From Escherichia coli (GTDB lineage: Bacteria > Pseudomonadota > Gammaproteobacteria > Enterobacterales > Enterobacteriaceae), in the NCBI RefSeq assembly GCF_029227855.1, contig NZ_CP074356.1: a stretch of DNA of 64,000 nucleotides, one strand, 5' to 3'. Both the position numbers and the translations under genes were made by a program. Below the pieces are notes generated by a model. The model was not told where the DNA came from. It saw nothing but the letters and a program-made list of their open reading frames with translations, and made no database searches. Shown here piece by piece: positions 16,696 to 18,467 of this stretch (positions are counted from its first letter, which is position 1; every line of letters starts with the position of its first letter).

Positions 16696-17144
16696 TACGT
16701 TCAGCGAGCGGTAAATGCCGTTTTAGCGGTGCTGAATCGAATCTTTTCAGGTAAATGCCAGTAAAAACTGCTTCATAGCGCGGATTTTTACTGGCGTTTG
16801 CCTGGAGTCAAGCGATCCATTTCATACTCTTCTTTATTTCTTCGTTTTAACCCTTCCTTTCTTGTTCTTGTTTTCATTTCCGTGAAGTGGATTCCACCGT
16901 CCAGGGCTAATGCCAAAATCGGGCCTCATTGAACGCATTAATGTTGTGTTGTTGCACGGTGAGCCGCTATGGCGCGCTTTTTATACTGCTATTGCCAGAT
17001 ATAAACACGCGCCGTATTCGGCGAACGACCTATAAAAACGGCAAAAAACACCCTACGTCACCTCTGATTTCCTGGCGATGTCGCAGTCCAGAGTGAGCGT
17101 GGCTAACGCGAATTTTCAGGAGTGCAACTCAGGCTGCGAGCAGT

Positions 17145-18467
17145 GTGGAAAAACGCACAAATGCTCGTTACTGGATAGTGGTGATGTTGTTTATCGTCAC
17201 ATCCTTCAACTACGGCGACCGCGCTACGCTCTCTATCGCCGGTTCGGAAATGGCCAAAGATATCGGCCTTGATCCTGTGGGAATGGGCTATGTGTTCTCT
17301 GCTTTCTCATGGGCTTATGTTATCGGACAGATCCCTGGTGGTTGGTTGCTGGATCGTTTTGGTTCAAAACGCGTCTACTTCTGGTCGATCTTTATCTGGT
17401 CGATGTTTACCTTGCTGCAAGGCTTCGTCGATATCTTTAGTGGATTCGGCATTATCGTTGCCCTGTTTACTCTGCGCTTCCTGGTCGGGCTTGCTGAAGC
17501 GCCATCTTTCCCCGGCAACAGTCGCATTGTTGCGGCCTGGTTTCCGGCGCAGGAAAGGGGAACGGCGGTGTCGATTTTTAACTCCGCTCAATACTTCGCA
17601 ACGGTGATCTTCGCGCCGATTATGGGCTGGCTGACGCATGAAGTGGGCTGGTCACACGTCTTCTTCTTTATGGGCGGTCTGGGGATTGTCATCAGCTTTA
17701 TCTGGTTGAAAGTCATCCACGAGCCAAATCAACATCCGGGGGTAAATCAGAAAGAGCTGGAGTACATCGCCGCGGGTGGCGCGCTGATCAATATGGATCA
17801 GCAAAACACCAAAGTTAAAGTGCCGTTCAGCGTGAAGTGGGGGCAGATCAAACAGCTGCTCGGGTCACGGATGATGATCGGCGTTTATATCGGTCAGTAC
17901 TGTATCAACGCCCTGACTTACTTTTTCATTACCTGGTTTCCGGTTTATCTGGTGCAGGCGCGTGGGATGTCGATTCTGAAAGCGGGCTTTGTGGCTTCCG
18001 TTCCGGCGGTTTGCGGTTTTATCGGCGGTGTGCTGGGTGGGATTATTTCCGACTGGCTGATGCGCCGCACGGGATCGCTGAACATTGCGCGTAAAACACC
18101 GATCGTAATGGGCATGTTGCTGTCGATGGTGATGGTGTTCTGCAACTACGTCAACGTTGAGTGGATGATCATCGGCTTTATGGCGCTGGCCTTCTTCGGT
18201 AAGGGCATCGGGGCGCTGGGTTGGGCAGTAATGGCAGATACCGCGCCAAAAGAGATCAGCGGTCTTTCCGGTGGCCTGTTCAACATGTTCGGTAACATTT
18301 CTGGCATCGTCACGCCAATCGCAATTGGTTATATCGTTGGCACGACTGGCTCCTTTAATGGGGCGCTGATTTATGTTGGTGTTCATGCCTTAATCGCGGT
18401 ACTGAGCTACCTGGTGCTGGTGGGCGATATCAAGCGTATCGAGCTGAAACCTGTCGCGGGGCAATAA
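17145..18467 (+). CDS. gudP: D-glucarate/galactarate MFS transporter; first in-frame start is GTG at 17145 (440 codons), no upstream in-frame ATG
   Basis: ORF track 440 aa; MFS transporter; precedes gudX-gudD. Confidence 0.88.

Follow-up and report, generated by a model that had tools for sequence, protein, structure and literature searches.

A 15-bp deletion that removes the native gudP start codon in a lineage of Escherichia coli

The stretch of DNA analysed here, referred to as the window, spans 64,000 nucleotides of an Escherichia coli genome (RefSeq assembly GCF_029227855.1, contig NZ_CP074356.1) and carries the operon context gudP-gudX-gudD, with gudP as the first gene. The gudP stop codon (TAA, 18465–18467) is followed by the gudX ATG at 18469, 1 nt after it. 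The features of the locus are as follows.

17094–17096, plus strand: TGA stop upstream of the gudP frame (sequence reading)
17112–17114, plus strand: ATT, the RefSeq/PGAP start of gudP in strain JNEC-KY178, giving a 451-aa product (annotation)
17118–17122, plus strand: native gudP Shine-Dalgarno (SD) AGGAG, orphaned (sequence, alignment and scoring)
17128–17129, plus strand: junction of a 15-bp deletion (alignment with the wild type and junction searches)
17136–17168, plus strand: predicted RNA hairpin (GCGAGCAGUGUG...CGCAC...UGCUCGU) whose stem includes the GTG at 17145 (minimum free energy fold)
17145–17147, plus strand: GTG, the Val11 codon of the wild type (sequence and alignment)
17145–18467, plus strand: remaining gudP open reading frame (ORF), 440 aa (ORF listing and comparison with strain DL21)
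18469–19809, plus strand: gudX, intact (ORF listing and annotation)
19830–21170, plus strand: gudD, encoding glucarate dehydratase, intact, the last gene of the operon (ORF listing and annotation)

The gudP frame is closed upstream by the TGA at 17094–17096, and our re-reading of the sequence agreed with the first-pass annotation that no in-frame ATG lies between this stop and the GTG at 17145. The statement holds for the region upstream of the GTG; further downstream, in-frame ATGs occur at 17184 and 17250, inside the first transmembrane region. The in-frame translation of the interval is AWLTRIFRSATQAASS, as previously given except for its first A, which had been left off. The first canonical start left in the frame is therefore the GTG at 17145–17147, which opens the 440-aa ORF (17145..18467) in the ORF listing. 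The sole AGGAG had been described as lying 23 nt upstream of this codon, too far for a normal ribosome-binding site, and the count is reproduced by the coordinates (17145 − 17122 = 23), with 22 nt separating the two elements. A search for in-frame near-cognate codons between the SD and the GTG returned none. An Rfam search of positions 16500–17400 found no RNA element or riboswitch in the leader at E ≤ 1, and a promoter and terminator scan of 16600–17300 gave chance-level matches only, all on the minus strand. A 64-aa ORF starting with ATG at 17078–17272 (plus strand) overlaps the gudP start region in another frame. It is open in the wild type too, because the 15-bp indel preserves its frame, and its SD is unconvincing (−1.5 kcal/mol), so that it probably does not represent a gene.

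Alignment with six complete E. coli genomes revealed that the window lacks 15 bp, AATGAGTTCTTTAAG, between positions 17128 and 17129. The wild-type arrangement is AGGAGTGCAAC-AATGAGTTCTTTAAG-TCAGGCTGCG, and AATGAGTTCTTTAAG is absent from the window. The deletion is in frame and takes with it the native ATG and codons 2–5 (Ser-Ser-Leu-Ser) of gudP, leaving the native AGGAG in place; in the wild type, AGGAG and ATG are spaced by 7 nt. Reading of the alignment showed no microhomology flanking the junction, and slippage between direct repeats was ruled out as the deletion mechanism on this ground.

To place the deletion within the species, we searched complete E. coli genomes. A 601-nt stretch around the site, used as query, had matches in 5,423 of them; just one reached a level of at least 99%, and all other matches span 615–616 nt. 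A 40-mer centred on the junction, which is unable to seed a match in a wild-type genome, hit a single genome out of 5,426, that of strain JNEC-KY178. The corresponding wild-type 48-mer (AGGAG, 7 nt, ATG) was found in 5,420 of the 5,426 and was 100% identical in 5,382. A scan of metagenome contigs for the junction gave no match. The start-codon mutation relative to other strains that the first-pass annotation had listed among its options is thus the one borne out by the alignments and genome counts, and aligning gudP 5′ regions, as it had proposed, places the start of the orthologues at an ATG 30 nt upstream of the GTG at 17145. Another of its options, inefficient initiation at the GTG, is the likely consequence as far as prediction goes. 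Orthologues starting at the same GTG were not found: Klebsiella GudP retains MSSLSQAA and has Ala at position 11, with no Val codon there, which indicates that conservation applies to the ATG as the start and does not extend to the GTG as an alternative. On these comparisons, gudP has lost its native start codon through an ordinary strain-specific 15-bp deletion, which is not a new mode of translation start.

The deletion is restricted to a small lineage, its carriers being the source strain of the window, JNEC-KY178 and GCA_017075055.1. The window is not JNEC-KY178 itself: between the two there are SNPs at 14709, 15362, 18066 and a few further positions, amounting to ~8 SNPs over 64 kb outside the CRISPR arrays, and a difference of one repeat-spacer unit in each of two CRISPR arrays (62 and 61 bp). 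In GCA_017075055.1 the junction is likewise present, and one SNP in 21 kb separates this assembly from the window. Since three assemblies that differ by SNPs and CRISPR content share an identical junction, we regard the deletion as a real lineage marker. Outside the carrier group, the closest complete genomes reach 99.1% identity over 20 kb, and their gudP annotation is normal. In the JNEC-KY178 annotation, many proteins (fucK, gudX, relA, cysJ, cysI and ygc genes) have consecutive recent RefSeq accessions (WP_2758775xx), so that these alleles were first seen in the carrier lineage, which suggests that the carriers belong to an uncommon E. coli lineage. In a preprint, the strains of the JNEC-KY series are presented as Japanese clinical STEC with hybrid Illumina and MinION assemblies; KY178 is not named in the part of its text available to us.

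Several further observations concern these genomes. The two CRISPR arrays are of type I-E and lie at ~34109–34747 and ~60449–61087, on either side of the cas3-cas2e operon region. The single SNP that sets GCA_017075055.1 apart from the window is a T in place of C at window position 17049, in the gudP leader ~70 nt upstream of the SD. The annotation of JNEC-KY178 also places a Hok/Gef family toxin gene at 51444–51596 (plus strand), between cysH and cas3, and a small frameshifted hypothetical pseudogene at 32819–32960 (minus strand), between ygcG and queE.

Downstream of the deletion, the gene is well preserved. With strain DL21 as the wild-type reference, residues 12–450 of GudP are 100% identical, the 15 nucleotide differences being all synonymous, and the gudP ORF is intact in all three carriers; gudX is intact with four amino-acid differences, and gudD is intact. 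The identity of the remaining GudP argues that the deletion is recent and, together with the intact gudX and gudD, that gudP was under purifying selection until recently. The TIGR00893 profile matched the 440-aa product with 538.7 bits (cut-off 395) over all of its positions (1–399 of 399), and the 450-aa form scored 538.6 bits; the 440-, 450- and 451-aa versions were all matched completely and with equal score. Homology to DgoT, a transporter of solved structure (6E9N; E = 7.5e-110), begins at GudP residue 13. Judged from these matches, a product started at the GTG would lose only a non-conserved tail outside the core and keep the transporter core whole. A single amino-acid change distinguishes the carriers within residues 12–450: JNEC-KY178 alone encodes R318C, having T at 18066 (codon 318) where the window and the wild type have C. 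The affected residue is basic and corresponds to a Lys of DgoT in the alignment. As a single event, the change is too little to demonstrate relaxed selection; it may be an early hint of weaker constraint following start loss, or noise.

We then scored every in-frame candidate start with a simplified Salis-type sum that combines SD/anti-SD pairing with a penalty for spacing, a term for the start codon and the cost of unfolding (energies in kcal/mol). Placeholder penalties were used for codons other than AUG and GUG, including AUU, and models of this kind are accurate to about an order of magnitude.

Wild-type ATG: SD pairing −6.9 (spacing 5), unfolding 3.8, dG_tot −4.3, rate 1
GTG 17145: SD pairing −1.8, unfolding 17.3, dG_tot +16.9, rate about 7e-5 of wild type
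ATT 17112: SD pairing −3.5, unfolding 7.3, dG_tot +6.9, rate about 6e-3 (placeholder AUU penalty)
Downstream candidates: SD pairing −0.9 to −3.1, unfolding 12.4 to 15.0, dG_tot +8.8 to +14.1, rate 2.5e-4 to 2.7e-3

By this crude score, every remaining in-frame start reaches at most 6e-3 of the wild-type rate, that is, at least 150-fold lower. The fold prediction additionally pairs the ACUC of the new junction with the GAGU of the SD. The numbers are rough and their direction is clear: the model leaves gudP with no good initiation site.

Taken together, we put a probability of roughly 85% on the reading that the 15-bp deletion is a start-loss mutation with strongly reduced GudP, tolerated through GarP, with a possible effect on gudX and gudD and with the RefSeq ATT start unsupported. 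The deletion left AGGAG with no start codon at working distance; lacking an efficient initiation site, GudP synthesis would be strongly reduced, with a predicted drop of at least two orders of magnitude, making the allele effectively a recent knock-down or an incipient pseudogene. Residual protein would most likely start at the GTG at 17145, the former Val11, which ribosomes drawn by the orphan SD might reach at a low rate, and would comprise 440 aa with the full 12-helix core, minus the non-conserved cytoplasmic tail. If gudP is poorly translated, gudX and gudD may be expressed less as well, via lost translational coupling or Rho-dependent polarity.

Tolerance of the loss would be explained by intact gar genes, among them the gene for GarP, which is the main glucarate/galactarate transporter of K-12; garD and garPLRK are intact in JNEC-KY178, the carrier in which they were checked. 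A K-12 ΔgudP strain grew normally on galactarate and was impaired but still growing on glucarate, and GarP was proposed as the primary transporter (10.64898/2026.05.20.726482). Another study reported that ΔgudP abolished glucarate fermentation (PMC11775122). As these reports disagree, tolerance through GarP is not certain, and the expected phenotype ranges from a mild to a clear glucarate defect.

Other readings of the locus were weighed against start loss. A sequencing or assembly artefact hiding a normal ATG came to mind only because a single complete genome had the junction, and nothing specific speaks for it; three separate assemblies with the identical junction and distinct SNPs and CRISPR content, together with a clean 15-bp loss in non-repetitive sequence, which is atypical of long-read or short-read error, make it scarcely credible. 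Translation from the ATT at 17112 is the RefSeq version of the gene: the PGAP coding sequence in JNEC-KY178 runs from 17112 to 18467 and encodes 451 aa with a new N-terminus, MFRSATQAASS, and the product that PGAP would call from the window has exact deposits under WEP42878.1, WP_275877701.1 and HAY0109600.1, which come from two contigs, one of them that of GCA_017075055.1. Beyond this annotation and its deposits, an ATT start is allowed by genetic code table 11, and it is the least bad remaining candidate in the crude score (+6.9). Yet the only real SD is located downstream of this codon, which has no SD of its own (−3.5 kcal/mol for the best pairing upstream of it), and in wild-type genomes it is an unused codon of the 5′ leader. 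AUU, moreover, initiates at 1–2% of AUG and has been confirmed as a start in E. coli only for infC and pcnB (10.1101/063800). The length of 451 aa, next to the 450 aa of the family, suggests a homology-driven choice, and we consider genuine initiation at this ATT very unlikely; the call is most likely an annotation pick that masks the start-loss allele.

It is also conceivable, if unlikely, that gudP is still functional, with sufficient initiation at the GTG at 17145 to yield an active 440-aa GudP and the deletion amounting to near-neutral trimming or modest down-tuning. The intact ORF, with wild-type amino acids from residue 12 onwards, is compatible with this, as are the position of the deleted and skipped residues outside the conserved core, the persistence of the allele into three slightly diverged isolates and the canonical nature of GUG, which initiates at 10–100% of AUG in good context (10.1101/063800). 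The context at hand is poor, however: the GTG has just a 3-nt GAG-like SD match (−1.8 kcal/mol) and a predicted rate of about 1e-4 of wild type, unfolding the predicted hairpin whose stem contains it would cost about 17 kcal/mol, 22 nt separate it from the strong SD, and the codon, replaced by Ala in Klebsiella, is not conserved and so did not evolve as a start. We hold it to be quite improbable that the deletion is adaptive, abolishing or reducing glucarate uptake in a clinical lineage, or that the orphan SD, 22 nt from the hairpin GTG, still drives useful initiation. The latter, if true, would be a case of unusually long SD-to-start spacing functioning in a natural gene. In E. coli evolving in inflamed mouse guts, gudP, cdaR and garK have been reported as repeated mutation targets (10.64898/2026.05.27.728231); an adaptive origin of the deletion is possible, and unsupported in the present data.

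Under the preferred reading of start loss, this is a known gene with an ordinary kind of mutation, and the allele raises no new biological question. RefSeq shows it as a normal 451-aa GudP starting from ATT, hiding a probable loss of function, and correction of the annotation is the practical outcome. In predictions of glucarate use and in metabolic models for the lineage, gudP should count as impaired, as possibly should gudX and gudD by polarity. In a gut that is inflamed or has been treated with antibiotics, the use of oxidised sugars is important to Enterobacteriaceae, and a natural start-loss allele is for this reason a convenient isogenic contrast.

Other natural lesions of the gud genes were also recorded. 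At the gudP start, ATG is changed to ACG in GCA_000193935 and GCA_000935475; Gln6 is changed from CAG to TAG in four assemblies; and GCA_017160115 has an 11-bp frameshift deletion, GTCAGGCTGCG, at the gudP 5′ end. The assemblies concerned are public drafts, including Shigella records. These lesions were found by looking up the exact 440-aa product and therefore form an ascertained sample, and a search of the 5,426 complete E. coli genomes returned neither the ACG nor the TAG variant; we accordingly dropped the recurrence of 5′ lesions as evidence of selection or convergence and treated it as background. Separately, in E. coli PSJ-12 (NZ_AP027622.1, 1781–2735), a large deletion has joined the initial 72 nt of gudP with the 3′ portion of gudX; barA directly follows the fusion, there is no gudD, and the gud operon is essentially lost.

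Among known systems, the ACG, TAG and 11-bp lesions leave the same 440-aa ORF from GTG11 as in the window; each is of independent origin and affects another position. infC and pcnB have an AUU start like the one RefSeq calls for gudP in the carriers, but in both the SD is at working distance and the AUU is conserved, whereas the carrier ATT lies upstream of the SD and is plain leader in every other E. coli. The closest counterpart is wild-type E. coli gudP itself, which encodes a galactarate/glucarate/glycerate transporter of the ACS family of the MFS. It shares with the window the gene order yqcA, gudP, gudX, gudD, barA, and its promoter, leader and SD are the same except for four SNPs far upstream; it differs in having the ATG and codons 2–5, with the start codon 7 nt after the SD, which are missing in the window.
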